This document shows, piece by piece, positions 1-29,693 of a DNA stretch of 64,000 nt. The first letter of the stretch is position 1, and every line of letters begins with the position of its first letter. The stretch is from assembly GCF_056746865.1 (NCBI RefSeq), contig NZ_CM163382.1; one strand, given 5' to 3'. The notes under the pieces were generated by a model. The model had not been told where the DNA came from and made no database searches. It saw only the letters and a list, made by a program, of their open reading frames with translations. Made by a program: the position numbers and the translations under genes.

Positions 1-2927
1 GATTTTATGAATCTGAACGACGCAATTTTCTCGGAACATTATTCAGTGAAGGTGGTTTACCTTTCCGGCTACTCAAAGAATCAGACAGTCGCTTTCTGGC
101 TGTTTTCTCCAGGATCCTTGGACAATATGAGCAAGCAAAGCAGTCAGGTTTTTCTGCCCTTTCGCTGGCAAGAGCTGTCATAGAAAAATCAGCGCTGCCA
201 ACTGTTTTTAGCGAAGATACCTCTGTAGAACTTATCAGTCATATGGCTGATAACCTCAATTCCTTAGTACTTACTCACAACCTAATAAATCACAAAGAAC
301 CAGTACAACAGCTTGAGAAGGTTCACCCTACCTGGCGAAGCGAGTTTCCAATACCGTTAGATGATGAAACAGGAACGCATTTTTTGAATGGACTGCTATG
401 CGCAGCCTCTGTAGAGGCTAAGCCTCGACTACAAAAAAATAAGAGTACGCGTTGCCAATTCTATTGGTCAGAAAAGCATCCAGATGAGCTTAGGGTGATA
501 GTATCTCTTCCGGACGAAGTTTCCTTTCCTGTAACAAGCGAGCCGTCAACTACGCGCTTTGAACTTGCCATTTGTGAAGATGGTGAGGAAGTCTCTGGCC
601 TTGGGCCAGCCTATGCTTCTCTGGAAAACAGACAGGCAACAGTTCGATTACGTAAAAGCGAAGTGAGATTTGGCAGGCAAAATCCATCGGCAGGTTTGTC
701 GTTAGTGGCTCGTGCTGGAGGGATGATTGTTGGGAGCATTAAACTTGATGACAGTGAAATTGCCATTGGTGAGGTGCCGTTAACCTTCATCGTTGATGCA
801 GATCAATGGCTGTTACAGGGACAGGCTTCTTGCAGTGTGCGAAGCAGCGATGTTCTGATTGTGCTCCCTCGGGATAATAGCAATGTTGCTGGTTTTGATG
901 GCCAATCGAGGGCAGTAAACGTATTAGGACTAAAAGCACTACCTGTGAAGGGATGTCAGGACGTTACAGTTACAGCAAATGAAACTTATCGGATTCGCAC
1001 CGGAAGAGAACAAATCAGCATCGGAAGGTTTGCTCTAAATGGAAAGCGTGCAAGCTGGGTTTGTCATCCAGATGAAACATTTATTGGTGTACCAAAAGTC
1101 ATTTCTACACTACCGGATATTCAAAGCATTGATGTAACGCGTTACCTGAGCGGAATTTCAATTGAGCAATGTCATATACAAGAGATGCTGGGGGCTCAAT
1201 ATCTTTCTATCCGTAATAGTAAGAATGAAACGCTCTTGCGTCGCAAAATCGGTATTTTGCCTGCTGATTTCAGTATTGAGATAAAAGGTGGAATACACGC
1301 AAATGAAGGCACTATCGTAATCACCACACAGCATCCTTGTGTAGCAAAACTTAAAGATAAAACATTGGAGGCTACACGTAAGCGTACTGAGGGGCGAACA
1401 GAGATACAACTCAAAGCGGAAGGGGTACCTCCGGCATTTATTACATTACAAGTTCTGCCTAATTTGGCGGCTGACCCCATCGATATTGAGTTACCTTTTC
1501 CCGCTAAAGGCTGTCTCGCTCTTGATGTAAACGGACGTCCTCTGGATAAAAACATTACGCTGCATGATCTGCTGGGTTCCAGAGCGTTTCTGTTCTCCAG
1601 AAATGGCGAGCCGACAAGATATACATTGCAGTTGCATTTGCGCTCCGTTAGTGGATTACAGGCATGGCACGAATGGTGTTATACGGCGTTGAGCGATCGT
1701 CCTGTTGAATTGAATCTCTATAGTCTGCGCGAACATATTGAGAACCTGATTTCACTTGAGGCAGGTATTGACCAGGTTGTTGAGATGCGTATTACGGGGG
1801 CGGGTGTGGTCATGGCCTGGCAAATTCGTCGCTATAAATACAGTCTGCGCTATGATTATGAAAAAGAACTATTACTCAGCCAGTCAGTGAACCATCGTGC
1901 TGGACAGATTCCTTCCCCCGTTATCATGCTGTTAAGTGAACCCGAGAGGAAATCCATCCCCTTAGCATCAAGAATGAGCGAGGGAGTGCCTGTCGGTGAA
2001 TATGAGTTGAGCTCAATCGTTAACAAAAATGGACCGTGGTTGGTTGTCCCTAAACCGGGTGAAGAGATGGCTTTTCGTCCCTGCTTCATTCGTGGCGAAT
2101 CTTCGTTACCGGTAGAAGAAAGCAACATCCGCTCATTGCAGAAAGCGACCCAGCTTTTTAATCCACAGGCAGAAGTTAATACCATCACACTGGTTCTCGG
2201 ACAGATGGCTAACGATCCTGCCCATTCCGGCTGGCAATTTATGCGTAGCCTGTACGATCAATTTGGTTATTTACCACTGGCAACCTTTGAAGTATGGCGT
2301 GCACTGGTGCAGCATCCGCAGGCATTGGCAATGTCGCTCTTCAAATTTGAAATGTCAGCAGAGTACCTGAGTCGTATTGAGAATGAGTTCCCTATTCTAT
2401 GGGAGTTTTTCCCCATCTTTGAGATCAAAGCGGCATCTGAGCGTTTCAAATTGTTCCTGAGCCAAAAAGGTGCACCGGAGGAAACCCAGAAATTACTGGT
2501 TACTAATATGTTTCAACGGCTGGGGCTCGTGTTCCCGACATATGCCGATGAAATTGAGAAATGGTTAAGTAACGGACATCTCCCCCCGTCTATTCCTGAG
2601 TCTTTTGTCCACGTGTGGTATCAGGAGCTTTTACGTGAGCATAGTGAAGCTCAATGGCCAGAGTACGGCAGCAAGCGGCTGCATAGCTGGATGGCATCAC
2701 AAAAAAATCCAGTGATTGGTATTAATCCTGACGCAAATCACCGCTATTCCGTGGCCTTGTTACCCGTCTTCGCTGCAGCTGTGGCAAGCGGAAATGCTTC
2801 TTTTGAATCTGTATTTGACCGTAAACCCGGTGCCGTATTTTTCCTGAGGCAAGTCAGGGATTTCGATTCCCGCTGGTTTAAGGCCATCTTCCAGTGCAGC
2901 CTGTTGCGTTATGTTGCTAAAAAATAA
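1..2927 (+). CDS. Large protein of unknown function, 5-prime partial (continues upstream of the window); first gene of candidate two-gene defense operon
   Basis: Reading frame is open from position 3 through the ORF-track ATG at 243 with no stop, and the upstream translation (FYESERRNFLGTLFSEGGLPFRLL...) looks protein-like; stop at 2925-2927; no catalytic motif I can name. Confidence 0.7.
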   Translation, partial: FYESERRNFLGTLFSEGGLPFRLLKESDSRFLAVFSRILGQYEQAKQSGFSALSLARAVIEKSALPTVFSEDTSVELISHMADNLNSLVLTHNLINHKEPVQQLEKVHPTWRSEFPIPLDDETGTHFLNGLLCAASVEAKPRLQKNKSTRCQFYWSEKHPDELRVIVSLPDEVSFPVTSEPSTTRFELAICEDGEEVSGLGPAYASLENRQATVRLRKSEVRFGRQNPSAGLSLVARAGGMIVGSIKLDDSEIAIGEVPLTFIVDADQWLLQGQASCSVRSSDVLIVLPRDNSNVAGFDGQSRAVNVLGLKALPVKGCQDVTVTANETYRIRTGREQISIGRFALNGKRASWVCHPDETFIGVPKVISTLPDIQSIDVTRYLSGISIEQCHIQEMLGAQYLSIRNSKNETLLRRKIGILPADFSIEIKGGIHANEGTIVITTQHPCVAKLKDKTLEATRKRTEGRTEIQLKAEGVPPAFITLQVLPNLAADPIDIELPFPAKGCLALDVNGRPLDKNITLHDLLGSRAFLFSRNGEPTRYTLQLHLRSVSGLQAWHEWCYTALSDRPVELNLYSLREHIENLISLEAGIDQVVEMRITGAGVVMAWQIRRYKYSLRYDYEKELLLSQSVNHRAGQIPSPVIMLLSEPERKSIPLASRMSEGVPVGEYELSSIVNKNGPWLVVPKPGEEMAFRPCFIRGESSLPVEESNIRSLQKATQLFNPQAEVNTITLVLGQMANDPAHSGWQFMRSLYDQFGYLPLATFEVWRALVQHPQALAMSLFKFEMSAEYLSRIENEFPILWEFFPIFEIKAASERFKLFLSQKGAPEETQKLLVTNMFQRLGLVFPTYADEIEKWLSNGHLPPSIPESFVHVWYQELLREHSEAQWPEYGSKRLHSWMASQKNPVIGINPDANHRYSVALLPVFAAAVASGNASFESVFDRKPGAVFFLRQVRDFDSRWFKAIFQCSLLRYVAKK

Positions 2928-2939
2928 AAAGGAATAAGG

Positions 2940-5900
2940 ATGACTACACGCTATTTTTCGTCACTTATTGAACAATCGTTGTCTCGTTCAACTGAAGCAA
3001 CGCTCAGTATCATGGGCGTTACCAACCCGCAGCTGCGTGAACATCTCGCGCAACAAATGGGGGCTGATTGTGGGAAACCGGGCTCATTCCTTGCTTCTCC
3101 GGTATTCCAGCAAATGTTTGGCTGGAAGGAGTCAAACCACACGATGCGCAGCCTGACGGAAGGCAACGCATTGTTGAGCAAAGCAGTGGTTGATTCACTG
3201 GATGATCAGAATAATGGCCGGTACCGGTTTGGTGCTGACTGGAGGCCTTTTACGCACCAGTTAGCCAGTTGGAAAGCTTTGCTGGAAAAGAAACATTCAG
3301 TGGTGGTAACCAGTGGTACGGGTTCAGGTAAAACGGAATGTTTTATGGTACCGGTGCTGGAAGATCTTTACCGGGAACTGCATGAAAATGGCAACAATCC
3401 GTTGGTCGGTGTCCGAGCCCTTTTTCTCTATCCATTGAACGCCCTGATTAATTCACAGCGCGAGCGTCTGGATGCCTGGACGCGTGGTTTTGGTACAGGG
3501 ATCCGCTACTGCCTTTACAACGGCAACACCGAAAACCTACACGCTTCGGTAAAAAGCGAACAGGCAAAAAGGCCGAATGAGGTGCTCTCGCGCGAAAAAA
3601 TGCGTGAAGAACCTGCGCCGATTCTGGTGACCAACGGCACGATGCTGGAATATATGATGGTTCGCCAGGTCGACGCCCCGATTATCCAGCAATCTAAAGC
3701 ACAAAAATCACTACGCTGGATTGTACTGGATGAAGCGCATACCTATGTAGGGTCGCAGGCCGCTGAACTGGCGCTCCAGCTGCGTCGTGTGATGACCGCG
3801 TTTGGCGTGACACCAGATGACGTGCGCTTTGTCGCGACCTCTGCGACCATTGCCGGCAGCGACGCTGAAAAGCAGCTGAAAAAATTTCTCTCTGAATTAT
3901 CCGGTATCCCGCAGGAGCGCATCGATGTTCTGGACGGAAGTCGGGTGATTCCTGAACTGGAACCATCCAAAAACGTTTCTGTTCCGTTAGACGAGATAGA
4001 GCAAATACCTGATCTGGATCTAAGAGATAAAAATGATAATAAAATTAAAGGGATAAGTCCTGAGCGCTTTTATGCGCTTACGCATTCCCCCGAAGCGCGT
4101 TACATACGTGAGATGTTGGTCAAACAGCCCAATCCGATGAAGCTGGATGAGATAACAGAGCGGTTACACGTGCTGACAAAACAGCATTACAGCCAGCAGG
4201 AAGTACTGCGTTGGATCGATGTCTGTTCAGGGACTCAACCTAATGCAAAGGATCCCGCATTTCTTAAAGTCAGGGCGCATATCTTCCAGCGTAATACCCA
4301 GGGAATATGGGCTTGTGTTGATAAAGATTGCAGATTAAAGCACGGTACACCGCTCGACAAAGGCTGGCCCTTTGGCTATGTGTATGTGAACCAGCGACAA
4401 AATTGTGACTGTGGAAGCCCTGTATACGAAGTTGCATTCTGTAATGATTGTAATGAGCCTCATCTTCTGGCACGGGACAAAAAGGGCAAACTAGTCCAGT
4501 GGGAAAATAAAGGTGGCGATGAATTCTCTTTGCAGGATGAAGTACCTGTTGAACATGACGCTACAGAAGAAAAAGTCGAAAAAGAGAACAGTTTTCAGCC
4601 TCCGTTGATTATTGCCGCAGGAGAGACCAGCGAGGCAGGTTATACCCTACAACGCCTCGACCGTCAGACGCGCCGTATTGGCGTTATTAACAATGACAGC
4701 ATTCCGCTGATTATTAATGATATTGAACAGGTTTGTAGTGCCAGTGGCTGTGGCTACAGAGGCATGAGTGGGAAACAGCCCTTCCGGCGTGCACTATTAG
4801 GTGGGCCATTTTACGTTACTAATATCGTGCCCACCGTTCTAGAGTATTGTCAGGACTTTACCAGTGATGAAGGCAAAGAGGGCGTCGGACCAGATTCGTT
4901 GCCAGGACGAGGTCGTCGACTCATCACCTTTACAGACAGTCGACAAGGGACAGCCCGAATGGCGGTGCGTATGCAGCAAGAAGCAGAACGCAGTCGCTTA
5001 CGCGGAAGCGTAGTCGAAATTCTCAGCTGGCATCAAAGGACGCAAACGTCTACAGCGCCGAATGCCAATGCCGATCTGGAAAAATTAGCGGCCAGGGCGA
5101 AGCAAGCCCGTGAGCAGGCAGAAGAATATCGAAGCTGGGGAATGCCAGACCAGGCGAAATTGTCACAAGCACAGGCTGAACAGCTTGAACAGGCTTATCA
5201 GGCTGCAACCGGTGGGAAAGCTGCGACTATCCTGGTATCCCGAACCTGGACGGAGATGGTTAACGAGCTTAAAGAGAGAGCCGATATCCGCGGGCCGGTT
5301 CTGCAATATAACCATTATCTTAAGCCTGAAGTGTTTAATGAAAACGGCGGCCCCCTTAAGCTTTCTGAAATGTTGTTGTTCCGGGAATTCATGCGTCGCC
5401 CTAAACGGACTAACAGCCTGGAAACACAGGGGCTGGTTCAGGTTGGTTACCAGGGGCTGGAGAAAATACATAAGAGCCCCTTGCACTGGCAGGAAAAAGG
5501 ATTAACGCTGGATGACTGGCGCGATTTTCTCAAGGTTACGTTGGATCATTACGTTCGCGAGAGCAACTTCACACAGCTGGATGATGAGCTGAAAAACTGG
5601 ATTGGTAGCCGTTTTTCATCAAAATTCGTCCGTAACCCGGAATCAAAAGATCCTGAAGATAATCAGAACAGACGCTGGCCTCAAATTCGTAATGGCAACG
5701 TATCCCATCGTTTAGCGAAGTTGCTGATGCTGGGGGCTGGATTCAAAACCGTCAATGCGGCAACTATTGATATTATCAATACATGGCTGAAAGAAGCATG
5801 GGCCCAACTTACCGGACCGCTTGCAGTACTGAAACCCGATGGCAACCGTTTTTATTTACCGAAAGAGCATATGACTTTTTCTTTAATCACGGATGCCTGG

Positions 5901-8900
5901 ATTTGCCCGGTAACCAATAAAATCCTGGATACGGCTTTTAAAGGCTTAACCCCTTATCTGCCTACCCATATTTCGTTCGAGCATCTTACCCTGGCGCAAT
6001 ATGACACTTTTGTCGCGCAGAAAGTCACAATGCCGGAAATCTGGAAGCTGGATCGTTCACAGGAAGACTACGCAGAGGGTCTGGCAAAAGCACGCGACTG
6101 GGTCAGCCATGATCCGCTGATCGCACAATTGCGGTCGGAAAACGTCTGGACAGACATTAACGATCGTGTCGTGGAAGGCGGCTTCTACTATCGTACTGCC
6201 GAGCACTCTGCCCAGCAGTCGTCAGAACGTCTGCAAAGCTATGAAAAGATGTTCAAGAATGGGCAACTAAATGTTCTCAACTGTTCCACCACCATGGAAA
6301 TGGGGGTTGATATCGGGGGTATTACTGCGGTGGTAATGAACAACGTACCGCCACATCCGGCCAACTATTTACAGCGCGCCGGGCGAGCCGGGCGTAGTAA
6401 AGAATCACGCGCGATCTCTTACACCCTATGTAAAGGTAACCCACACGACCAGCAGGTTTTTGCCAACCCGCTCTGGCCATTTGAAACCATGATCCCGGCA
6501 CCCATGGTCGCGATGAACTCCGCCCGACTGGTGCAACGTCACGTCAATGCATTATTACTGTCCGACTTTTTATGTAACGTTATTGGCGAAACCGATAAAG
6601 AAAAAACCAGCCTCGATAGCCTCTGGTTTTTCGGTGAAGATGACGGGCAGTCAAAATGCGAACGCTTTAAAATCTGGCTGGAACGTCCGGTTCTTGATAT
6701 CGACACGGCGCTGGAACGGCTGGTGAAAGGTACGGCGTTGCATGGTGCAAGAGCCGAATATCTGCGGGATAAAACAATCAACGCGATCACCTTCCTGCAA
6801 CAGCGGTGGCTCTCCGTTTATCGCGATCTCGTGACACAGGAGCGTGAGTCGCAGCCGCAAACGCCTTATCGTAAGCGCATAGAGCTGGAGAAGAAACGGC
6901 ACTGTGGCGAGTATCTGCTGCGCGATCTGGCTGCCAGAACCTTCCTGCCGGGATACGGTTTCCCGACAGATGTAGTGACGTTTGATAACTTCACGATGGA
7001 AGATTATATCCGCGAAAAATCGCAGAAAAGTCGTGATAAAAAGGACCGTGAAGATAACGTTTCCCGTTATAAAGGATTACCTTCCCGTAACCTCGGTGTT
7101 GCCATTCGTGAATATGCACCGGGAGCAGAGATCATCCTTGATGGCCGTGTCTTCCGCTCTGCCGGTGTCTCACTGCACTGGCACAACATTAATGCTGATA
7201 CCAATGAAGCCCAGCGTCTGGATTGCGCCTGGCGCTGTCACAAATGCGGGACCATTGGCTATGAAGAGGGGATGAGCAGTTCCGGGATGCTCTTTTGCTC
7301 CAATAGCGCCTGCGGCGAAAAAATAATCATGGATAATCGCCGTCAGGTGCTGCAGCCTGCCGGGTTTGTCACCGATGCACACGCTCCGGTAACGAACAAT
7401 ATTGAAACCATGAAATTCGTCCCGGTTGTCCCCGCGTGGGTCTTTGTTAAAGCAGAGCCCGTACCGTTGCCTAACCCGCTAATGGGTTATATGGCTTCTG
7501 GGGCTGATGGGCATGTTTTCCAGCAAAGTTTGGGGGAAGGTGGACACGGTTATGCATTGTGTCTGAGCTGTGGCCGTGCTGAGTCGATGCTGAATGAAAA
7601 TGATGCGCCGAAAAGTATGGAAGCTCACTATCCACCGCGTCCGGGTAAAGCGGATCGCGACAGCCAGAATCATCGTCTGATTTGCCCCGGTTCGACGGCA
7701 CTCATGAAGAATGTCACCCTGGGCGCACTGGCGCGTACCGATGTCTTTGAAATGGTTCTGCGCAAACCGCAAAACGGCGAGTATCTGCCAGATAACACAG
7801 AGGAGGGGCGGATTGTTGCCATGACTCTGGCGGTTGCTCTGCGTCAGGCGCTGGCGGGCGTTCTGGGTATCTCCGCCGCAGAACTCGGCTATTCTGTACG
7901 TCCGGTCAGACTGGAGGATGGGCAATCGGTATTAGCCGTACAGCTTTATGATGTGATCAGCGGTGGTGCAGGTTTTGCCTCCAGCGCACCGGTACACATT
8001 GAAGCTATATTGCAGGGAATGGTGAAACAGTTAGGCTGCCGCCATTGTGAGACTGCATGTAGTGAATGCCTGCTTGATTCCCAGACTCGCCACGATCACG
8101 ATTTGCTGGATCGCAAAGCGGCGCTGGCCTGGCTTGGCGATGACTTCACGTATTACATCGGTTTACCGGATGAAGAGACATTCTCGCTGCCGGATGCCCG
8201 CTACTGCCCTGGCGCCATTGGCGATACGATTCGCCGGGCGATTAACGAAGGCGCTGAAAAGCTCACCCTGTGGATGACCGGCGCGCCCAATGAGTGGGAT
8301 TTATACGCACGTCAGTTCCGCGCGGCGGTTCAGAACTATCGGCTAAAAGACAACGTCGAGGTCGATCTTGTTATTCCTACGGGAGTGGATGACCCGGACC
8401 TGTTGCATGAACTATCGCAATTTACTGCGCTGGGTGTGCGGCTGTGCCATGTTGAACAGGATCTGCAATTACCGATCGTTGCCCAGGTCACCTTTACCGA
8501 TCGCGTGATGACGCTGGCCTCTCGCAGCCAGCAGGCAACGATTCCGGGGCCGGAGTGGCACCTGAATGACGAACTGGTGGTGCGTAGTCTCGGTTATAAA
8601 ACGGTAGAACTGAACGAGTTTATTCTGCCGGCTAAAGCCACCAACGCTGTCGAGCGGGTCAAAGACATTCAGATCCACAAACAGTTGAATGGACCACTGT
8701 CGCAGTTTGGGCAACGCTTCTGGGACGTGCTGTTTAACGACCATGAAGAAGCGCAGTCACTGATGAATAACACGCGAATTACCGGCGTTCACTATACCGA
8801 TCGCTATCTGCAAAACCCGGTTGCGCTGGCGTTGTTGGGATCAATTCTGAGACCGCTAAAAACAAAGCTGACCGATGGCGCTGAAGTGACGCTGGATACG

Positions 8901-9284
8901 CTATTTAAAGATAAAGATCGCCCCGGTAACCGGCCTTTCCATGACTGGATGAGCATAGCGGATTTTCAGGATTTCGCTGATCAGTGGTTTGCTGCTGCGC
9001 TGGGCAGGCCGGTAGAACTGACGGTGTTCGACTCGCCGCGCGATATCCCTCACCATCGTAAACTGACGGTGACTTTTGAGGATGGTCAGGTATTGAAGAT
9101 CCGCTTCGATCAGGGGATGGGCTACTGGCGCATCAACTTTTCATCGCAATGGCATTACTTTGATTTCCGCGATGACGTTTCTTTCCAGTTAGTCAAAATG
9201 GCTCAGGCCTGCAAGGAAGGGAATGTCGCCAACAGCGAAGAGAGTTGGGCAACGGATGTGCTGGTGGAGGTGATCGCCTCCTGA
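2940..9284 (+). CDS. Giant (2114 aa) DEAH-box superfamily-2 helicase with C-terminal Cys-rich Zn-ribbon (DUF1998/MrfA-like) region; candidate DruE-like defense helicase
   Basis: Walker A GTGSGKT (aa 126-132, nt 3315-3335), DEAH box VLDEAH (aa 264-267, nt 3729-3740), SAT motif, helicase C-domain motif QRAGRAGR (nt ~6372-6395), Cys clusters [31 protein letters not shown] (nt ~7220-8075); starts 13 nt after gene 1 stop behind aaggaataagg RBS. Confidence 0.85.
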
Positions 9285-9290: not shown

Positions 9291-9325
9291 GCCGCTCCCG
9301 ATGTGGTGTCGGGAGCGGTATTTTC
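9291..9325. terminator. Bidirectional rho-independent terminator between the convergent helicase gene and mcrC
   Basis: Stem ccgctcccg / cgggagcgg with 9-nt loop followed by T-run, in the 56-bp gap between two convergent stops. Confidence 0.6.
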
Positions 9326-9340: not shown

Positions 9341-10387
9341 TTATTTGAGATATTCATCGAAAATGTCGAGTAATTCTTGATGTATACACGGCCATTCCTG
9401 ACCTAAATTGACGGTACACAAGCCAATATCGAAGCCATTAATTTTATAACGATGTTTCACTGCGGTATCTACGTGGGGATATATTAATAATCCCCCTATG
9501 TTTTCGCCATTTTCAGGCTTTAACGACCATAAGTAATTCATCAGTTGATAAAGATTTTGCGAATGAAATTTTTCTGTTCCCATTCGTCGTGAAAAAATGC
9601 TCTTATAGTATTTGGCGTCAACGATAAGTATTTTTTCTGATGAGCGAATGGTGATGTCAGTTTCCATTCGAGGTAACAAATTAAGTGACTGATCCGATAT
9701 ACTCGATGCATCCCATTTTAAATAAGAGCGGGTTGTGTTTGCAGACGTTAATTCACGACGGCAAAATTCATAAAGAAACTTTTGATAAAGTAATGACATC
9801 TCTTTTTCGTTTCTTTCAAAATCATAGAAACGGTAGTGTCCTTTGTTTTGACCTGGAATAGAATTATTGACGATGAATTTGCAGACACTGATAACGAATT
9901 TATAATAACGCGTATTTTTTCCGCCATTCAGATAGCTGAAATGCTGCGGAGTTAAATGAAGAGTGCTAATGCCCGGTAATTTTCTATAAAGTGAACGAGC
10001 TTCATCTCTGATAGTTGAATTTAACTTTTCATGCTTAATTAATATGGCTAATGTGCTTTTTATAATTCGGTTAGCCAGCGTGTCTTCATTAAGCATATCA
10101 AAAGTACTGACGGTTTTCCCATGATTAAGATGGAAGCCGCGTATTGTTTTAGCAAACTCTATTCGCCCTTTGATGCCAGGAATGATCTCGGTATTAGGAT
10201 TGTAATCAAGCTCAAGCCCTCGGCGTGAAAGCTGTAAAACCCCTTTATTTAATACATACCCCAGGATATCAAGAAGATTGTTACCGGGTATGGCTTCAAG
10301 GTTTGCCTGCTTAATTTCCTGTAAATAACCCCATGCATAGGTAAGCATGTAATAGATATTACGGACAGGTATCACGGGCTGTTCCAC
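9341..10387 (-). CDS. mcrC: McrC, specificity/nuclease subunit of the McrBC modification-dependent (type IV) restriction system
   Basis: Translation matches McrC as I recall it (..EQPVIPVRNIYYMLTYAWGYLQEIK..); start taken as GTG at 10387, overlapping the mcrB stop by 1 nt; AT-rich gene. Confidence 0.9.
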   Translation of the reverse strand: MEQPVIPVRNIYYMLTYAWGYLQEIKQANLEAIPGNNLLDILGYVLNKGVLQLSRRGLELDYNPNTEIIPGIKGRIEFAKTIRGFHLNHGKTVSTFDMLNEDTLANRIIKSTLAILIKHEKLNSTIRDEARSLYRKLPGISTLHLTPQHFSYLNGGKNTRYYKFVISVCKFIVNNSIPGQNKGHYRFYDFERNEKEMSLLYQKFLYEFCRRELTSANTTRSYLKWDASSISDQSLNLLPRMETDITIRSSEKILIVDAKYYKSIFSRRMGTEKFHSQNLYQLMNYLWSLKPENGENIGGLLIYPHVDTAVKHRYKINGFDIGLCTVNLGQEWPCIHQELLDIFDEYLK

Positions 10388-11766
10388 TATGAGTCCCCTA
10401 ATAATTTGTTGGTCCATTTCTGTTGTTTATAGGGGTCATCAAAGAAATATTCTTCGAGTAAAGGGGCGATATCCGTCATCACAATTTCATTAAGCCATTG
10501 CGTATCCGGAGAGGTGCCATCTTCCAACCCACAGCAGAAGTAACTATGCCCAATGCGGAATCCTTTCCCAAGGATAGTGGCCTCTTTGCTGATTTCCTGG
10601 TTCAACTCGTTCATTTTTTGGCATAAAGACTCAACAAATGAAGGTTCTGCTTTTTTATTCAGTAAAAAATTCCGGAACTGTGGTGTATCAAAACCTGGCT
10701 CAATATCTATGAAAGAAAATCGTCTGCGTAGGGCATAGTCAACAACGGCCAGAGAGCGATCGGCAGTATTCATTAAACCGATGATATAAACATTCTCCGG
10801 GACATAGAATCGTTCTTCATCGTTTTCGGAGTAGGTTAGGGGAACAGACCAGTTTTCACCTCGTTTATCATGTTCCATTAACATCATCACTTCGCCAAAT
10901 ACTTTACTGAGATTGGCACGATTGATTTCATCTATAATAAAAATATACTTTTTCTCTGGCTGCTCTTTAGCTTGCTGACAAAAATTGTAAAATATGCCGT
11001 CTTTACGTCGGAAGCCGACGCCATTCGGACGATAGCCCTGTATAAAATCCTCATAGCTATAGGATTGATGGAACTGAACCATATTGACGCGTTGCGGAGC
11101 CTTTTCTCCTGTCAGCAAGTAAGCCAGACGGCGTGCAACAAAGGTTTTTCCAACGCCGGGCGGCCCCTGGAGGATAATATTTTTTTTGATGGTTAATCGT
11201 TTGAGTATCGTCTCTATTGTGGTTTCAGGGATAAACAAATCATTTAACGCATCTTCCAGACAGTATGATTCAGTTTTTGACATAGGTGGAATAACACTCT
11301 TGCCAGAATTAAATATTAATTTATAGTCGTTGATTATGTTGTCCAGCATAGAGGCAAATCGGGTGTAATCAATACCCTGTGAGACTTTTTGGGAACAGGC
11401 GTAATAGGACTGTCCGTATTTTTTAGGATATACACCCGAAGTTGCCTGAAAATACTCTGCGATTGTTTTAGGTATGTCTGAAGAGAACTGCCATTGGGCA
11501 TGTGGTTCATTCGTGTCGCTTATACCATAAGCCAAAACCAACTCATCAAAATCTTTATAATAGAGAATAACGGGATATATACCGTTAGAAGCTTCCTGAC
11601 CTTCTCCAAGAAATGCAAACCAGGGAATAGACGTAAAATTACCATAACCGAAACTCAATTTTACTCGCAGGTTACGGTAAGACGTTGGATAATCTTTAGT
11701 GGATTGCGAACGTTGTTGCTGTGCTTGCTTAATAAATTTTTCAATCCAGGGTTGAATAGATTCCAT
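10387..11766 (-). CDS. mcrB: McrB, GTP-binding 5-methylcytosine-DNA recognition subunit (AAA+)
   Basis: Translation MESIQPWIEKFIKQAQQQRS.. with Walker A GPPGVGKT; start at the 7th codon of the track ORF (459 aa). Confidence 0.9.
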   Translation of the reverse strand: MESIQPWIEKFIKQAQQQRSQSTKDYPTSYRNLRVKLSFGYGNFTSIPWFAFLGEGQEASNGIYPVILYYKDFDELVLAYGISDTNEPHAQWQFSSDIPKTIAEYFQATSGVYPKKYGQSYYACSQKVSQGIDYTRFASMLDNIINDYKLIFNSGKSVIPPMSKTESYCLEDALNDLFIPETTIETILKRLTIKKNIILQGPPGVGKTFVARRLAYLLTGEKAPQRVNMVQFHQSYSYEDFIQGYRPNGVGFRRKDGIFYNFCQQAKEQPEKKYIFIIDEINRANLSKVFGEVMMLMEHDKRGENWSVPLTYSENDEERFYVPENVYIIGLMNTADRSLAVVDYALRRRFSFIDIEPGFDTPQFRNFLLNKKAEPSFVESLCQKMNELNQEISKEATILGKGFRIGHSYFCCGLEDGTSPDTQWLNEIVMTDIAPLLEEYFFDDPYKQQKWTNKLLGDS

Positions 11767-11927
11767 AAGATATGCCTTCCTCATTGCTAAGCCTCTATTA
11801 TCGCTTTCGCAACGTACTGAAACAATAGATTTTTACTGCAAAATCAGACTGGTAAATATTTACTGAGGGGGAAAGTTTCTATTGAGTCAGTGGAAGGCTC
11901 CCGGTGGTTAACCGGGAGTAAACGCTG

Positions 11928-12269
11928 TTACGCGACTTTCTGTTTACCGGCAATCACTCCAATAAACGCCTGCACCTGCTTTTGTTTACGCGCCGACAGT
12001 TTGCACACCTGGCGTAGCGACTGCATCAGTTCGCTCTCCTCGGCGGCGGGTGGTTGGGCGGTGAGGACAATACAGCCTTCCATCACTTTGACATCTACCG
12101 CCGTGCCAGTGGCAAAACCGGCGGCTTCCAGCCACTGACCTTTCAGGGTGATGGCGGGAATACGGCTGTAATCCGGGTAGCGACTCGCATAACCGACGGT
12201 GACATGACGGTTATTTGCCGGGGAGACTTCTGCTTCGAACGGTTGTGCAATAGAATGCGTGTCAGTCAT
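11928..12269 (-). CDS. symE: SymE, SOS-induced type I toxin (AbrB-fold RNA endonuclease-like)
   Basis: Translation [34 protein letters not shown].. (113 aa) inside the 132-aa track ORF. Confidence 0.85.
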
Positions 12270-12340
12270 AACTGCTATTCTCCAGGAATAGTGATTGTGA
12301 TTAGCGATGCGGGTGTGTTGGCGCACATCCGCACCGCGCT
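12255..12340 (+). ncRNA. symR: SymR antisense sRNA (antitoxin of symE), approximate position
   Basis: Established knowledge: SymR is encoded antisense to the symE 5-prime UTR and start codon; ends not determinable from sequence alone. Confidence 0.4.
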
Positions 12341-12342
12341 AA

Positions 12343-12362
12343 ATACCTGTATATATCATCAG
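12343..12362 (-). promoter_or_regulatory. Putative LexA operator (SOS box) in the symE promoter
   Basis: tacCTGTatatatcaTCAGta on + strand, CTGA-N8-ACAG on the symE strand, 7/8 match to the CTGT-N8-ACAG core. Confidence 0.45.
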
Positions 12363-12496
12363 TAAATATGGGGAAAGTCCAGCTAAAAATAGAATAAAAT
12401 GGGCAATTTCTGGAATGATTTAAATATATTTATGTGGGTTATGATTGGCGTGAAATAATAAAAAGCGCACCGGAAAGGTGCGCCAGAAAATAATGT

Positions 12497-13891
12497 TCAG
12501 GATTTTTTACGTGAGGCTTTTTTACCCCCGCTAGCTGCGCGTTCAGCTTTGATTTTTTCCAGCAACGCGGCGGCGCTGTTTTCTCCGCTGATCAAATCCG
12601 GGTTTTCGGCCCGCCACTGGGCGGTAAGTTCACCACGGAACGCTTTTGCCAGGATGGATTGCGTCAGGTTGTTGACGCGGGCTAAGGCGTTGTTGACCTG
12701 TTTTTCTATGGTGTCGGCGTAGGCGAAGAGTTGCTCGACGCGGCGAACGATTTCGGCTTGTTCTTTTACTGGAGGTAATAAAACAACTTGGGATTTGATA
12801 TCTTTTCCTGAAATACCTTTTTGACCAGAAGTTGTTTTCACGCAGTTCATCATTGCATTTCGTGCTGAGGGGGATGAAAAAAATATTTCGATATATTCTG
12901 GTAAAGCATCTTTGGTTAATCGAGCTCGAATAAGTTTATCAGGATATAGCAAATTTTGATGTTGTAATTTTTTCAATAACCCACAAACACCAACAAATTC
13001 TAAACTTCCGTTATAGCGAGTAAATAAAAGATCTCCATCTTGTAATTTGTGGCGGTTTAGTTCACTTTCTGAACATTCTAGAAACCGAATATCGTTTTGA
13101 TCTACATGGCCAGCACGTACAGAACTAATGCGTAGTATTGGATGACCAACACCACTTTCATTTGGCTTTGATGAAAGACCATTACGTAATTCAGTTAAGA
13201 TAGATTCAAAATTTAACTTCTTAAATACAGAATGTTGCGGCTCAAAATTACGCCATTTTTCTGTCAATTTTCCATTAACTGCGCCCCCCAATACCGCTTG
13301 ACGAAAACGTTTCAGGATTTGTGGGATTTGCTCAAAACGTGCTTTGGTGCTGTCTACCTGCGCCAGCAGCGTATCGAGTTTTTCAGCGATGATTTTTTGT
13401 TCGGCAAGTGGTGGGATTGGTATATTTATCAAATCAAAGCTTGCCGGCTTAATATTATTAATATTTGCACCAGCAGAAAGTGATGAAATTTTGTTTCGAT
13501 AAAGAGAAGATTTTGTGAAATGAGCAATAAAACCAGAAAATATAAGTTTTTCAGGACGTAATACACCGCAAAATGCGCCGAAACTACATTCAAATGGTAG
13601 ATGCTGATGTGCGGATTTACCAACTACGGATTTGCTCCCTGATGACATTGCAATAACAATATCTTCAGGAGATATTTTTTGATTTTCTTTAACAAGATTT
13701 TTAGGAACAAAAACCAAGTCCGTAGTATCAAACTTGCCATTCTGAATATTGTTCGCACGGATAAGAGGCAAATAATCATCTTTTAGATAATTTATTGCCT
13801 GCTCTTTTTTATACGTTACTCCTCGGATTAGAGTTGTGACCGTAGATACTGGGGCGATAACCCACCCCTCCGGCAATTTCCCCGCACTCAT
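12497..13891 (-). CDS. hsdS: HsdS, type I restriction-modification specificity subunit (EcoKI family)
   Basis: 464-aa translation MSAGKLPEGWVIAPVSTVTTLIRG..; AT-rich target-recognition regions; stop overlaps hsdM. Confidence 0.9.
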   Translation of the reverse strand: MSAGKLPEGWVIAPVSTVTTLIRGVTYKKEQAINYLKDDYLPLIRANNIQNGKFDTTDLVFVPKNLVKENQKISPEDIVIAMSSGSKSVVGKSAHQHLPFECSFGAFCGVLRPEKLIFSGFIAHFTKSSLYRNKISSLSAGANINNIKPASFDLINIPIPPLAEQKIIAEKLDTLLAQVDSTKARFEQIPQILKRFRQAVLGGAVNGKLTEKWRNFEPQHSVFKKLNFESILTELRNGLSSKPNESGVGHPILRISSVRAGHVDQNDIRFLECSESELNRHKLQDGDLLFTRYNGSLEFVGVCGLLKKLQHQNLLYPDKLIRARLTKDALPEYIEIFFSSPSARNAMMNCVKTTSGQKGISGKDIKSQVVLLPPVKEQAEIVRRVEQLFAYADTIEKQVNNALARVNNLTQSILAKAFRGELTAQWRAENPDLISGENSAAALLEKIKAERAASGGKKASRKKS

Positions 13892-15477
13892 TCCTTCACC
13901 CCACCAAACGCTTCTTCCAGCAACTGACGCTGCAAATCGGCCTCATCGCTCGCCCCCAGTTCACGCATCAGCGCATCCAGTTCAGACAGCGCCTGTACCA
14001 GTTCGCCCATCGCTTCTGCCGCTAATACATCCGGCTCCGGCAGGCTGTCGGCATCAATACTGTCTTTATCTTTCAGCCAGGAGATATCCAGCGAATCGGA
14101 TTTTGCGGTGCGGATCCACTCACGGCTGAACTTGCGCCAGCGGCTGGTAGCAAGATGCTGGTCGGTGTTTTTGTTCTCTTCGCTGTCGGCAACTTCCGTC
14201 TCTTCGGCGTTAAAACTCCATTCACCTTCAGTGCGCGGGCTTAAACCGTGCGGGTCTTCGCCATACACGCGCTCAAACGGCTGCAAATGCTCGTCGGTAA
14301 ACGGTGTGCGCTTGCCGAAACTCGGCATATTGGTACGCAGGTCATACACCCACACGTCGTCGGTGCAGTTCTTATCCTGATGCGGGTTCGCCACTGTGCC
14401 TTTGGTAAAGAACAGCACGTTGGTCTTCACGCCCTGCGCGTAAAAAATACCGGTCGGCAGACGCAGAATGGTGTGCAGATGACACTTATCCATCAGGTCA
14501 CGACGGATGTCGGTGCCTTTGCCGCCTTCAAACAACACGTTATCTGGCACCACCACCGCCGCACGACCGCCGGGATGCAGCGTTTCGATAATATGCTGCA
14601 TAAAGCACAGCTGTTTGTTGCTGGTCGGGTGAACAAAGGTGCGGGTAATGTTGGTGCCTGCGGCGCTGCCAAACGGCGGGTTAGTGGCGACAATATGCGC
14701 CTTCGGCAGGTTTTCACCGTCGCTGCCCAGGGTGTTGCCCAGACGGATTGCGCCGCCGTGGTCGAGGTTGCCTTCAATATCGTGCAGCAGGCAGTTCATC
14801 AGTGCCAGACGACGGGTGCCGGGCACCAGTTCGAGGCCGATAAACGCGCGGTGGATCTGGAAATCCTGCGTGTCGCCATCAAGGTCGTCCAGATCATTGG
14901 TTTGCGACTTAACATAGCGGTCGGCTTCAATCAAAAAGCCCGCCGTACCTGCCGCCGGGTCCTGCACCACTTCACGCGGCTGCGGTTTCAGCAGATGAAT
15001 AATGGTTTTAATCAGCGGACGCGGGGTGAAGTACTGGCCTGCACCAGACTTGGTTTCATTCGCGTTCTTCTGCAACAGCCCTTCGTACATATCGCCGAAG
15101 TCATCGCGCGACTTACCGTGCGCGCCGTTGTACCAGTCCAGCGAATCCATATTGCTGACCAGTGCGGTTATTTGTTTCGGCTCGGTGATGGTGGTACTAA
15201 CATTATGAAAAACTGCCTGTACCAGCTTTTTGTCATCTTCGCCTAAATGCACGAGCATTTTTCGGTAGAACTGCAACTGCTCCTGGCCGATGCGGGATTT
15301 CAGGTCATCCCAGCGGTAACCTTCCGGCAGGTATTCCGCTTCCTGACCGGTCTCTTTACACATTTTCAAAAACAGCAGCGAGGCGAGTTCATTGACGTAG
15401 TTTTGATAGGAAACGCCGCCATCGCGCAGGTTGTCGCACAGCTTCCACAGCTTCGCGACCAGATCGTTATTGTTCAT
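13888..15477 (-). CDS. hsdM: HsdM, type I R-M N6-adenine DNA methyltransferase
   Basis: 529-aa translation with NPPF catalytic motif (..HIVATNPPFGSAAG..) and AdoMet-binding region; 4-nt overlap with hsdS. Confidence 0.92.
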   Translation of the reverse strand: MNNNDLVAKLWKLCDNLRDGGVSYQNYVNELASLLFLKMCKETGQEAEYLPEGYRWDDLKSRIGQEQLQFYRKMLVHLGEDDKKLVQAVFHNVSTTITEPKQITALVSNMDSLDWYNGAHGKSRDDFGDMYEGLLQKNANETKSGAGQYFTPRPLIKTIIHLLKPQPREVVQDPAAGTAGFLIEADRYVKSQTNDLDDLDGDTQDFQIHRAFIGLELVPGTRRLALMNCLLHDIEGNLDHGGAIRLGNTLGSDGENLPKAHIVATNPPFGSAAGTNITRTFVHPTSNKQLCFMQHIIETLHPGGRAAVVVPDNVLFEGGKGTDIRRDLMDKCHLHTILRLPTGIFYAQGVKTNVLFFTKGTVANPHQDKNCTDDVWVYDLRTNMPSFGKRTPFTDEHLQPFERVYGEDPHGLSPRTEGEWSFNAEETEVADSEENKNTDQHLATSRWRKFSREWIRTAKSDSLDISWLKDKDSIDADSLPEPDVLAAEAMGELVQALSELDALMRELGASDEADLQRQLLEEAFGGVKE

Positions 15478-15567
15478 TGTGAGTTCCGTAAATTAAGCAG
15501 CGGCCCAAATTCATCGAGCCGCAGAAGAAGAAATTGCCGAGGGTAATATACACAAAATCATTCAGGT

Positions 15568-15662
15568 TGCATCAAGGCGGCAAGTGAGTGAATCCCCGGG
15601 AGCGTACAGAAGTACGTGACCGGGGTGAACGAGCGCAGCCAACGCAGAGGCAGCCTGAAGGA
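15568..15662. repeat. ERIC (IRU)-like intergenic repeat between hsdM and hsdR
   Basis: Contains AAGTGAGTGAATCCCCGGGAGCGTACAGAAGTACGTGACCGGGGTGAACGAGCG, close to the ERIC core GTGAATCCCCAGGAGCTTACAT..GGGGTGAGCG. Confidence 0.65.
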
Positions 15663-15677
15663 TGAAGTGTATACGTG

Positions 15678-18600
15678 TCAGGCCAGCTCGTCCCAGATAT
15701 AATCGCTGAATTTGCCCAGCAGGGTATCGAGATTATCGTCAAAGGTTCTTTGCAGCATCGCCTTCCCGCCGCGACGGTGGAAGTTGCCGGTTTTGAAGAC
15801 ATCGTCGTCGAGCACCACTTTCTCTTTCAGCGCCTGCGCTAAACGATCGAGCCAGCTTAATTGCTCGCTGCTCCAGTCGTTTTCGCCCTTAATGCGCGTC
15901 AGCGCGTGATCGACACGTTCCTCAAACGGTTTCAGCGCATCGCCCACCGCAGCGCGGCGAATATGACCAATCAGCCGGGCGGCGATATCTTCATTGCGCG
16001 TCTCTTTCCATGCTTTGCGCAGGGAAGATTCCTCAAAGTGCTGGCGGTCAAACCACTCCTGTAGCTCGACCAGCCCTTTACGGGTGAGATCGCGCGGGCG
16101 ATTAATAACTGCCTGCAATGCCGGTTGCGCGTTCGGGGAACGTTGCACCAGCGAGTCAAAGGCTTCGAGGAAATCCTGCGGCGTGTCGTAATCACCGTAC
16201 AGCGATTTTACACTCACCACTTCATCGTCGATATCGAGGAAGATCGGCGCATCATTCAGGTTGTTGATGTCCGTTTTCAGCTTTTCCAGACGGGCGATAA
16301 AGCCAGGCAGTTTGTTAAAGACTTCGGCGCTCCAGTGCGGCCCTTTTTCCCGCAGGCGCGAGGCGAAGCCGTTAAAGCCCACCCCCGCCGCGTCCTGGCA
16401 TAGCTCATCCAGACGACGCACCTGTTTATCTATCGTTTCGCTGCGGTCACGGTTAAACGTGGCCAGGCCGATGATGCGCTGGAGCTTCGCCACCAGTTGT
16501 TCATGGCTGTGCTCGGCAAAACTGCGGCCATCCGCTTCGGTGATTTTATAGGTTTCTGAATCGGTAATTTCGTTGACCAGCGTTTGCAGCTCCACCTTAG
16601 GACGCACCACCACCGGACGCATGGTGTCGACGCTCTCCAGCGTGCTGTATATATCGACGCAGTCGAAAATCTTAAAGCTGGTTTTATTCACGTCCGGGCA
16701 CAAGCGCGTGGCGCGGCCTTTCATCTGCTCGTACAGAATACGGCTGCGTACTTTACGCAGGAACACGATGTTACAGATCGACGGAATATCGACGCCGGTC
16801 GTCAGCAGGTCGACGGTTACCACAATATTGGGCAGCCGCTCTTTATTGAAGCGGGTGATCATGGTCTGCACTTTGCGCGCGTCTTTATCGGCATCACCGG
16901 TGATCTTGATTATCGCGTCGTGCTCCAGTTGCGGATACTTTTTCTTGAACGCGGTACGCAACTCTTCCACCACCATATCGGCATGGGCATTGGTGACGCA
17001 GAAGACCAGCGTTTTTTGCGACCCGGTCGGGTCAAGGTAGTTGGTGAGTTCGTTACAGACGGCGCGGTTAAACGCCGGGATCACCAGGCCACGGTTAAAG
17101 TCGGCGACCTCAAAATCCTGATCGTCTTCCAGGGTGTCGTTGATTACTTCCCCCTGCGGGCTGATGCGCTCTACCTGTTCGCCTTTGGAGAGATAAACAC
17201 CCTCCTGTGCGTTGCGGGTGGTGATCTGAATTGGTGGATCCTGGTCGATCAGAAAACCGTCGATAACCGCGGTACGGTAGGTATAACGGTAAACCGGCTC
17301 GCCGAAAATCTGCACCGTATGCAACGCCGGGGTGGCGGTGAGGGCGATTTTTATCGCATCGAAGTGATCGAGAATGCGACGGTAGGCAGAGACATAATCC
17401 AGCTGGCTGCGGAACTGTAGTTCGCCTTCGGTCTGCTCTTTATCGAGAATATAGCCGCGATGCGCTTCATCGACGACGATACAGTCGTAACGGGCCACCG
17501 GCATCGGTTCATCTGATTGCAGGGTGCGTTTCACCAGCGACTGTACGGTGGCAACGTGAATTTTGGTGCTGTCTTCCGGGAATTTATCCGTCAGCCCTTT
17601 AATGTCGAAAATGCTGTTGAAGGTGTCGCCGTTAATACGCGTATCTTCAAACGCCCCCAGCGCCTGCTCGCCAAGAGAACGGCGATCCACAAGGAAGAGA
17701 ATGCGTTTAAAACGCTGGGACTGGATCAGGCGGAACATCATGGCAATTGCGGTGCGGGTTTTACCGGTACCGGTCGCCATCGCCAGCAGGATCTCTTGTT
17801 GACCCTTGACGATTGCCTTTTCCACCGCGCGGACGGCATCTTCCTGATAATAACGCAGGCCCAGCTCGCTCATGCCGGGATTATCGGCAAACCACTGATT
17901 CTGTTTTTGCGGTTCGCTGCCGAGCATTTCCAGCAGCTCTTCCGGGCGATGCCACTCGGGTAAGGCTTTCGACATATTGCGGGTATCACGCACGTCGCGA
18001 TACCAGATGCCACTTTTAGTCTTCATTGCTGCGCGGTATTCGCGCCCGTTGGTGGAGTAGCAGAAGGGGATTTTAAACCGTTGTTGGCCGCTGGAGTCCT
18101 GCCAGCTAGTTTCATACTCCGGCACCGCTTCATGCACTTCATCCGGTGAGTAGTGCTCAAGCAAGGTTTCCCGCAGGAAGCCATTATCGAAGCATTTACT
18201 GTAGCGATACGACTCATTGAGCTTGCCGGGAACGTCGATATTTTTACGTTTCGCCTCTACCACCGCGATGGGTTTGAGGCCGACAAACAGCACATAATCC
18301 GCAAAGCCCTGTTTACCCGTTTCATCTTTCCCGGTCGGCCATTCGGCAATGGCTTTATTGACGCCGGGTTCCGGGCGCGCGCCTTTGGAGAAGCGCAGGG
18401 TTTTGCTATCGGCCTGCCAGCCTGCTTTACGCAGTTGCGCATCAATCAGGAAGCGGCTCTCTTCTTCGCTAAGGTTGAGTGTGCGCTTGATGGCCTGATC
18501 GGTAATTTCTTTGTGGTAAGCCTTACGTTCCTGTTCAGTCTGTTTGGCCAGTTCCGCGTTCTTCTCGGCGAGCTGTGCTTCCAGCGCCGCAAGGCGAGCC

Positions 18601-19190: not shown

Positions 19191-19377
19191 TGTTATTAAT
19201 CCATTGCTGTGTGGGCCTGTCCAAATATTTAAGGCCCATAACGTCTTATCTTAGCTTTCTGTACCTTTCCGGACAATGACCGGAGTCACAGCAACTGACT
19301 CATTTCTAACGTGTTCGTCTATTTTGGTAGTGTTATAGTAGCCGAAAAACATCTACCTGATTCTGCAAGGATGTACT

Positions 19378-24613: not shown

Positions 24614-24630
24614 CTTAACCTCCTGCTGCG

Positions 24631-26193: not shown

Positions 26194-26443
26194 GTCGACC
26201 TCTACAGTATTAATCGGAATACGATTGTTAATTTTGTGTGTTGTTTTTGTTATTCAATTGAAGCTTGCAGGGGCGATTACGGGAAGAGACTTTTGGGACA
26301 ATGGCTGGTACTTTTCAGGTCGGGTACGGTTTTGTGATCGAGGTCGCTTTTAGCGATTTTTGACGTTACTAAATCCCCTTGCTCCAGGCGGAGAAAGGGG
26401 AATAGCAGGTGGTGCCTGGTTTCCCGTTAAGGCTAAGGGATTT

Positions 26444-27334: not shown

Positions 27335-27343
27335 CGTCGTTCC

Positions 27344-28720: not shown

Positions 28721-28744
28721 TTTTCTTCCTCTAATGGGATTTTT

Positions 28745-28894
<150 letters not shown>

Positions 28895-28900
<6 letters not shown>

Positions 28901-29683: not shown

Positions 29684-29693
29684 CGTTCTCTCC

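Follow-up and report, generated by a model that had tools for sequence, protein, structure and literature searches.

Positions 1-9284 of the 64,000-nucleotide window that we analysed are, as judged from sequence, an undamaged Druantia type III-A anti-phage operon, with druH (yjiT) followed by druE. We consider this identity as a Druantia III system, taken together with a direct form of defence that is driven by the helicase, to be very probable. The system is already known and is not new: it is covered by PADLOC, NCBIfam, Pfam (the YjiT_N, YjiT_2nd and YjiV_N families) and the PDB sequence set. The assignment explains yjiT and yjiV, pseudogenes of E. coli K-12 that have long been puzzling, as what is left of a wrecked Druantia III system. 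It also means that two Druantia III clades occur in E. coli, deeply diverged from each other and sited at different loci, and that only one of them has been studied. The copy described here, which lies in the immigration control region (ICR), would make a useful natural comparison for the disputes over the role of DruH and over that of the PLD-like domain. In the literature that we searched, no direct experimental test of the ICR clade was found.

Two co-directional ORFs on the + strand are read in this region, and all of the features of the operon described below lie on the same strand. The first-pass annotation had assigned the pair to Druantia type III (DruH-DruE), and the PADLOC models bear this out. 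The first gene matches DruH3 (PDLC00049) with 1597 bits, over profile positions 123-1099 of 1100, and the second matches DruE3 (PDLC00037) with 2701 bits over residues 1-2110, whereas the DruE models of types I, II and IV score at most 540 bits. As is characteristic of Druantia III, druH is the sole accessory gene and is located directly upstream of druE in the same orientation. The flanks are yjiS upstream and a convergent mcrC downstream, therefore neither DruA-D nor DruM/F/G genes are present. The product of druE also has the size and domains of a type III DruE (approximately 2000 amino acids, a DEAD/DEAH SF2 helicase and a DUF1998/MZB domain), with a length of 2114 amino acids. The window DNA is 100% identical to that of E. 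coli GN04592.

The druH gene is represented by its 3′ 89%, at 1-2927. This comprises codons 123-1096 and a TAA stop at 2925-2927, in a frame that is open from position 3. In the RefSeq annotation of the identical genome, yjiT encodes 1096 amino acids from a TTG start 364 nt beyond the left edge of the window. An ORF start at position 243 was considered as the start of the gene and rejected, because the frame runs open to the window edge. The operon had previously been called intact; this holds in that druE is complete and druH is undamaged, but the first 122 codons of druH and any promoter fall outside the window. The full-length YjiT protein matches the NCBIfam family YjiT_fam (NF038336) with 1258 bits (cut-off 150). 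A Pfam scan of the same protein returned no match, using a release that predates YjiT_N and YjiT_2nd (PF27201 and PF27205).

An AlphaFold2 (AF2) model of YjiT, with a mean pLDDT of 83.8, predicts three parts. [quoted passage not shown] A structure prediction for this gene had been suggested by the first-pass annotation, and the predicted architecture of helical, Ig-like and helical parts matches that of the published DruH. The latter has six Ig-like domains, and in the published complex its C-terminal domain touches the stalk of DruE. The matches of the model in a Foldseek search of the PDB are tandem-Ig receptors (leptin receptor, Dscam and contactin), with very low TM-scores.

For residue-level comparison we used the PDB sequences of the solved DruE (9tu7) and DruH (9tud) from the ‘cluster 11’ system of Wu et al. 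(PMC13192584), which is the Druantia III system of E. coli Sakai. Only the N-terminal domain of YjiT is clearly similar to 9tud in a pairwise alignment (27% identity, 79 bits). A profile alignment of YjiT with Sakai DruH by hhalign has a probability of 99.9% over 1010 columns. In this alignment, which is of low confidence at these sites, the nucleobase/ATP pocket residues Y670, N672, Y733, R1031, H1062 and K1067 of the cluster-11 protein fall opposite different residues or gaps. The cluster-11 residue R1064 aligns with the invariant R1036 of our clade, in a region where the hhalign confidence is near zero. Mapped by position alone, the published catalytic-surface residues R22, K28, E64 and E220 of the P. 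aeruginosa protein (PaDruH) do not align with invariant residues of the ICR clade.

The druE gene, at 2940-9284, encodes a YprA/MrfA-like SF2 helicase of 2114 amino acids, and K-12 yjiV is its decayed counterpart. The helicase is matched by the PDB sequence of 9tu7 with 1029 bits over residues 5-2089, and Pfam finds DEAD, Helicase_C and MZB (DUF1998) domains, the last of these being the match on which the first-pass annotation had staked its assignment. The SF2 motifs and Cys clusters that were quoted from this protein are all present. The RecA1 core (3255-3869; Pfam DEAD, residues 106-310, E-value 1e-22) hosts the Walker A motif GTGSGKT at residues 126-132 (nt 3315-3335), thus K131 is the Walker A lysine, as had been proposed. 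It also hosts DEAH at residues 264-267 (nt 3729-3740) and SAT at residues 301-303. RecA2 (6192-6398; Pfam Helicase_C, residues 1085-1153) contains QRAGRAGR at residues 1145-1152 (nt 6372-6395). The region between the two RecA domains (residues ~690-1080), the candidate site of the stalk/dimerisation domain through which a type III DruE would dimerise and contact DruH, is colinear with Sakai DruE and is poorly conserved at ~700-800.

The Cys clusters had been read as DUF1998/MrfA-type throughout. This is right for one of them: C1700, C1703, C1707 and C1710 form the sole cluster within the Pfam MZB (DUF1998) match (7830-8072; PF09369, residues 1631-1711, E-value 4e-9). The others are Zn-binding motifs apart from MZB, and correspond to the double-Zn (dZBD) and OB/Zn (OBZ) domains described in the DruE cryoEM paper. 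The first is a Cys-rich double Zn-binding region between the RecA domains (4314-4751; C459, C464, C489, C491, C501, C504, C599 and C604), where all but C599 are invariant in a four-way DruE alignment. The second is a pair of motifs in the OB/Zn region (7224-7685; C1429/1433/1436/1453/1458 and C1541/1544/1582), where all but C1429 are invariant. A C-terminal PLD-like tandem domain (8109-9281, residues 1724-2114) is assigned by sequence alone, in keeping with type III-A architecture; residues 1624-2089 align with the PLD region of 9tu7 (its residues 1609-2089) with an E-value of 3e-36. In the four-way alignment this domain has the invariant residues Y1952, D1954-R1955-Y1956 (DRY) and H2038-x-R2040 (HxR). 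The catalytic and Zn motifs do not vary among the DruE proteins of E. coli, Aeromonas, Methylotuvimicrobium and Sakai.

Some candidate expression signals can be read around the genes. The 12-nt gap between druH and druE hosts a Shine-Dalgarno-like AAAGGAA at 2929-2935, which suggests that the translation of druE is tight or coupled. A G+C-rich hairpin with a 13 bp stem and a following T-run (9291-9319) starts 7 nt past the druE stop, before the convergent mcrC. This is likely to be a terminator, and possibly a bidirectional one; the consensus scan that found it returned 1 hairpin where 0.3 were expected. The G+C content of druHE is 45-53%, and we saw no sharp anomaly of the kind that marks a mobile island; mcrBC alone has a clearly low value (41%). 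In the RefSeq annotation of the 100% identical genome the neighbours are mcrC, mcrB, symE/SymR, hsdS, hsdM, hsdR and mrr, i.e. the immigration control region. This defence-island context had been pointed out from the sequence, and it recurs: homologous DruH-DruE pairs are found beside other defence genes in Salmonella Typhi, Aeromonas and Methylotuvimicrobium.

The first-pass annotation knew of no mechanism for Druantia III, a statement that has been overtaken by at least five papers or preprints of 2026, several of which present structures and models. Defence by the characterised systems depends on both genes, on the helicase motifs and on the MZB cysteines. Cultures that carry Druantia III survive a high multiplicity of infection, and phage are cleared without killing of the cells. 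DruE is dimeric, unwinds in the 3′-to-5′ direction and works with DruH; its loading sites are ssDNA or forks in the phage DNA. The latter has variously been reported as an ssDNA binder, an exonuclease, or a sensor with nuclease activity. Both a nuclease activity of DruE and its activation by forked DNA have been reported, and another published model proposes immobilisation without degradation. Whether Druantia III itself cuts DNA is disputed in the literature.

By homology with these other clades, a mechanism can be proposed for the ICR copy. A DruE dimer would load on exposed ssDNA, or on the 3′-tailed or forked DNA that arises from phage replication and recombination. It would translocate 3′-to-5′ using ATP, by means of K131 and the DEAH motif, and the strand separation would require the Zn-binding MZB domain. 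DruH would act with DruE on the same DNA, either as an ssDNA binder or as a 3′-5′ exonuclease, and possibly also as a sensor of infection. The phage genome would be disabled or degraded and the cell would survive, so the defence would be direct and not abortive. The host chromosome, being circular and covered with protein, would offer no loading site, which would allow self to be discriminated from non-self without methylation. With regard to the fate of the phage DNA, we lean towards a contested version of this mechanism, in which the DNA is finally degraded and the PLD-like C-terminus of DruE and/or DruH would provide the nuclease activity.

It is possible, with a lower probability in our judgement, that the same system works without a nuclease of its own. 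DruE would unwind from 3′ tails, DruH, freed of its inhibition by ATP, would coat the ssDNA, and the immobilised genome would be destroyed by other nucleases of the host or of the neighbouring genes, for which McrBC, the type I enzyme, Mrr and RecBCD are plausible candidates. One group found that the PLD domains of the cluster-11 E. coli system are dispensable and saw no nuclease activity, and DruH has been solved with ssDNA bound at a site for which ATP competes, both of which fit well with this idea. However, the DruE of P. aeruginosa shows ATP-dependent degradation of ssDNA, and the substitutions D1740A, D1917A and R1918A abolish its defence. Motifs of the DRY and HxR types line the putative nuclease pocket of that protein, and both are invariant in the ICR clade, which suggests that the PLD pocket is under selection. 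Furthermore, nuclease activity of DruH has been reported by two groups. Degradation by the system itself is the version that we continue to favour.

A more speculative idea, which we think rather unlikely as a whole, is that the ICR clade differs from the studied one in its sensing or regulatory half. The DruH of the ICR clade shares only ~20% identity with that of the studied clade, and its ATP/nucleobase pocket may be missing. The ICR clade may have co-evolved to work with the nucleases next to it (McrBC, type I restriction-modification and Mrr) rather than with Zorya II and ARMADA II as partners; for example, phage DNA unwound by DruE could be finished off by these enzymes or by RecBCD.

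The history of the locus raises the question of whether an operon that is intact in sequence confers any defence. It could give little or none if it were silenced (e.g. by H-NS), or if it were decaying, as it is in K-12, E. coli B and S. Typhi. As the first-pass annotation had stated, K-12 carries only decayed remains: MG1655 retains positions 1-1145, 4163-6312 and 8495 onward, which are annotated as yjiT and helicase pseudogenes. Two internal deletions, of 1146-4162 (3017 bp; the junction shows GTTAC microhomology) and of 6313-8494 (2182 bp), have left 44% of the locus and destroyed both genes. Loss by deletion of this kind is typical of accessory defence genes. Decay has also occurred repeatedly elsewhere. 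B-type strains have only the 3′ 36% of the locus, IS insertions are found in H1 and H24, and the DruE of S. Typhi is broken into ORFs of 845 and 1281 amino acids. Some part of the locus is carried by 661 E. coli genomes, but at least 80% of it is present in just 231 of the 5426 complete E. coli genomes (~4%), and no sigma-70 consensus promoter was found by a consensus scan of the 498-nt yjiS-yjiT intergenic region upstream of yjiT, a result that is itself uninformative. Against this, three E. coli alleles contain no internal stops, and all of the catalytic motifs are intact. The dN/dS ratios between intact alleles are 0.14-0.15 for druH and 0.10-0.12 for druE, with alleles up to ~10% apart at synonymous sites, which shows that both have long been under purifying selection. 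We therefore regard an operon with little or no activity as improbable.

That druH-druE is a housekeeping DNA-repair module akin to MrfAB of B. subtilis (mitomycin repair), and not an immune system, seems very improbable: the core and MZB domain of DruE are homologous to MrfA/YprA (PDB 6znp, 63.5 bits), and mitomycin C renders the characterised system cytotoxic, so Druantia III can act on damaged host DNA, but the similarity to MrfA is confined to the core and is far outscored by the PADLOC DruE3 match, the genes are patchy in distribution and dispensable, the defence-island context is found in four genera, and direct phage-defence phenotypes have been reported for homologous pairs. On the PADLOC scores and the context we rejected such a repair function, the other Druantia types and other YprA-family systems.

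Several other systems share features with the operon. DruE has its SF2 core and MZB domain in common with MrfA/YprA of Bacillus subtilis, DrmA of DISARM, DpdJ and ARMADA. The matches to these are partial and weak (98 bits for DpdJ, 35 bits for DrmA and the 6znp match given above, against 2701 for DruE3), and none of the DISARM, Dpd or ARMADA partner genes is present in the neighbourhood, hence we do not assign the operon to these systems. The K-12 yjiT and yjiV pseudogenes are at the same locus, and their retained DNA is 99.8-100% identical to the window.

The type III Druantia of P. aeruginosa BL12 (Loeff, Chanez and Jinek 2026 preprint) also consists of two proteins, with a helicase that carries a PLD-like C-terminus. 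The glutamate of its DEAH motif is E266, where that of the ICR DruE is E265, and both proteins have the pocket motifs DRY and HxR. We considered the P. aeruginosa homologue P0159, which is 59% identical, as the DruE of Loeff et al. and rejected it; the published residue numbers do not fit, so the protein of Loeff et al. is a different variant.

The main comparator is the Druantia type III-A system of E. coli ATCC 8739, EDL933 and Sakai (ECs_5259-ECs_5260, in OI-172/SpLE6 at leuX). The two systems differ in their setting: the Sakai-type locus is in a leuX-integrated element between Zorya II and ARMADA II, whereas the ICR copy adjoins mcrBC and hsd. They have also diverged in DruH, where pairwise similarity can be detected only in the N-terminal 250 amino acids and where, in a low-confidence alignment, the ssDNA/ATP pocket residues of the Sakai-type protein are mostly unmatched, although the overall architecture is the same. 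The ICR DruE is colinear with Sakai DruE (ECs_5260) over ~2100 amino acids, but only 34% identical to it. The gene order is shared, as is the DruE series of RecA1, Zn-rich insert, RecA2, OB/Zn, MZB and PLD-like C-terminus, and the helicase motifs and MZB cysteines that are essential in the Sakai-type system are all present in the ICR copy.

Two co-directional reading frames occupy positions 1-9284 of the window, both on the + strand. The druH (yjiT) frame is open from position 3 and ends with a TAA at 2925-2927, and druE, the intact form of K-12 yjiV, follows at 2940-9284 and encodes 2114 aa. The 12 nt between them contain AAAGGAA. Beginning 7 nt past the druE stop, and ahead of the convergent mcrC, a G+C-rich hairpin with a 13-bp stem leads into a T-run. 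The sequence of E. coli GN04592 matches the window with 100% identity across all 64,000 bases, and its RefSeq annotation gives yjiT 1096 aa, with a TTG start 364 nt left of the window. Therefore the window lacks the first 122 druH codons and any promoter. The first-pass annotation had described an intact operon in this stretch; this holds for the two open frames and the complete druE, but not for the 5′ end of druH. A mechanical ORF call that starts druH at position 243 was rejected, as the frame is open to the window edge and the annotated TTG is further left.

The observation itself is confirmed, and its interpretation as a Druantia type III (DruH-DruE) system is supported. The PADLOC type III models cover both proteins end to end. 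The druH product matches DruH3 (PDLC00049) with 1597 bits, in an alignment that begins at profile position 123, just where it should if the window edge truncates the gene, while the druE product matches DruE3 (PDLC00037) with 2701 bits over residues 1-2110. Among the other PADLOC models, no DruE of type I, II or IV exceeds 540 bits on the second protein, and DpdJ, DrmA, BrxH and Cas3 match its helicase core only. The first protein is also a member of the NCBIfam family NF038336 YjiT_fam ('STY4851/ECs_5259 family'; 1258 bits, cut-off 150). Judged by sequence, the architecture is type III-A, with a PLD-like DruE C-terminus. The system is already known and the locus well known; PADLOC, NCBIfam, Pfam and PDB all contain entries for the system.

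All of the DruE motifs previously quoted were found: the Walker A motif GTGSGKT at residues 126-132, with its lysine at K131, DEAH at 264-267, SAT at 301-303, QRAGRAGR at 1145-1152 and Cys clusters at 1429-1458, 1541-1544 and 1700-1710. Pfam places DEAD at 106-310, Helicase_C at 1085-1153 and, as a suggested DUF1998 search had anticipated, the MrfA Zn-binding/DUF1998 domain (MZB) at 1631-1711. The Cys clusters had all been attributed to DUF1998/MrfA-type domains, which is correct for C1700/C1703/C1707/C1710, the sole listed cluster within MZB. The remaining two, and a further, previously unlisted Cys set at 459-604, match the OB/Zn and double-Zn domains of the DruE cryoEM structure. The last 390 residues of DruE align with the PLD-like part of an E. 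coli DruE of solved structure (PDB 9tu7; E 3e-36). A DruE alignment across four genera shows Y1952, D1954-R1955-Y1956 and H2038-x-R2040 to be invariant, and the same motif types line a putative nuclease pocket in P. aeruginosa DruE.

Full-length YjiT was modelled with AlphaFold2 from a 57-sequence alignment (mean pLDDT 83.8). In the model, residues 1-269 and 834-1095 form helical domains at the N- and C-terminus, and the middle, 272-820, is all-beta. Its Foldseek matches are tandem-Ig receptors, and the predicted architecture agrees with that published for DruH (helical/Ig-like/helical). The residues of the published DruH nucleobase/ATP pocket are mostly not aligned with identical ones, R1064 alone falling on an invariant residue, R1036, but the alignment is unreliable in this region.

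The defence-island setting is also borne out. The block 3′ of druE is the E. coli immigration control region (ICR): mcrC (9341-10387, -), mcrB (10387-11766, -), symE (11928-12269, -) with the SymR antisense RNA (12264-12340, +; Rfam, 95 bits), hsdS (12497-13891, -), hsdM (13888-15477, -), hsdR (15678-19190, -) and mrr (19378-20292, +). The region is complete at 9341-20292, and the G+C content of mcrBC is noticeably low, at 41%. YjiT homologues with 41-77% identity occur in Enterobacterales, Pseudomonas, Aeromonas, methanotrophs and others. At each of the three loci opened, a DruE of about 2100 aa follows the YjiT homologue and defence genes surround the pair: an HNH/ScoMcrA-like enzyme, AbiJ and a YjhX toxin in S. 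Typhi, SIR2 and an AAA_5 pair in Aeromonas, and type I R-M, a Schlafen/AlbA protein and an integrase in Methylotuvimicrobium. A lack of model or domain matches, or homologous pairs mainly outside defence islands, had been named as grounds against the assignment; the matches and these loci show the opposite.

Elsewhere in the window, the complete set of 4-hydroxyphenylacetate catabolism genes (hpaC, B, A, X, I, H, F, D, E, G, R; 24101-35278) lies between btsT and tsr; this cluster is known from E. coli B, C and W but not from K-12. In GN04592, RefSeq marks the MFS transporter gene lgoT of the L-galactonate locus (37110-38471, -) as a pseudogene that contains an internal stop. At 49829-50153 (-), three tRNA-Leu genes stand in tandem with a period of 121 bp and correspond to the leuV/P/Q cluster. 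REP/BIME-type repeats scoring as Rfam naRNA4 occur as five tandem 101-bp units in the yjjW-yjjV interval (58117-58629), as two 111-bp units adjoining the tRNA-Leu cluster (50273-50524) and as a single copy near deoC (62105-62181).

Of 5426 complete E. coli genomes, 661 contain some part of the locus, in every case chromosomal, and 231 have 80% or more of it. K-12 had been said to carry decayed fragments only, and indeed its strains keep 44% of the locus (window 1-1145, 4163-6312 and 8495 onward), having lost the rest in two deletions, one of 3017 bp, whose junction shows GTTAC microhomology, and one of 2182 bp; the remnants carry annotations as pseudogenes of yjiT and of a helicase. In B-type strains of E. 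coli, the last 36% alone survives. Among three intact alleles (synonymous divergence up to about 10%), dN/dS is 0.14-0.15 for druH and 0.10-0.12 for druE, so selection keeps both genes where they are intact. In S. Typhi, namesake of the STY4851 family (locus L006, 13313-19637; locus L005, 13300-20845), druH is intact, but one assembly calls its druE partner as two overlapping ORFs of 845 and 1281 aa and another does not call it. This druE has probably become a pseudogene by frameshift, which would be a third independent decay besides K-12 and E. coli B. A 921-aa protein cluster with 229 members (P0118) matches 40% of YjiT at 97% identity and combines YjiT domains with MZB; it is presumably the fused frame left by K-12-type deletions joining yjiT to druE fragments.

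The earlier statement that no mechanism is known for Druantia III has been overtaken by several 2026 papers. Some points were reported for the system of E. coli ATCC 8739/EDL933 and for one of P. aeruginosa. In these, defence depends on both genes, on helicase motifs I, II and VI and on the MZB cysteines, and cultures infected at high MOI survive, so that defence is direct and not abortive. DruE is a dimeric 3′-to-5′ DNA helicase on ssDNA, 3′-tailed or forked DNA. Beyond this, the groups disagree on DruH, which has been described as an ssDNA binder inhibited by ATP, as a 3′-5′ exonuclease that prepares forked DNA and recruits DruE, and as a phage sensor with dimer-dependent nuclease activity. 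They also disagree on the PLD-like domain of DruE, for one group an essential nuclease coupled to ATP, whereas in another report it is dispensable and its activity undetectable. In yet another account, a mycobacterial system blocks the circularisation and replication of phage DNA. We give substantial weight to the same system operating without a nuclease of its own, but favour a functional PLD-like pocket in DruE of the ICR clade, because the DRY and HxR motifs are invariant there. The mechanism of druHE is probably that of its homologues. By this analogy, DruE would load on ssDNA-bearing intermediates of phage replication or recombination and unwind them, DruH would act on the same DNA, and the phage genome would then be degraded while the cell survives.

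The link to Druantia III is already in print. No paper directly testing the ICR copy was found in the literature searched. The characterised E. coli system, Sakai ECs_5259/ECs_5260, sits at leuX with Zorya II and ARMADA II on its flanks. In O157 Sakai SpLE6 (locus L010, 18934-50000) this pair sits between a Zorya II-like three-gene set, ECs_5256-5258, and four large helicase genes, ECs_5261-5264, which are ARMADA II according to the literature. Wu et al. divided Druantia III into 15 clades, with DruE and DruH trees that are congruent, and studied 'cluster 11'. The Sakai system belongs to a different clade from the ICR copy: the DruE proteins share 34% identity over their full length, and the DruH proteins 27% over the N-terminal 250 aa (BLASTP) or 20% over 1010 columns (hhalign, 99.9% probability). 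The residual value of the ICR pair is that it represents a second Druantia III clade of E. coli, deeply diverged and unstudied, set among different defence genes.
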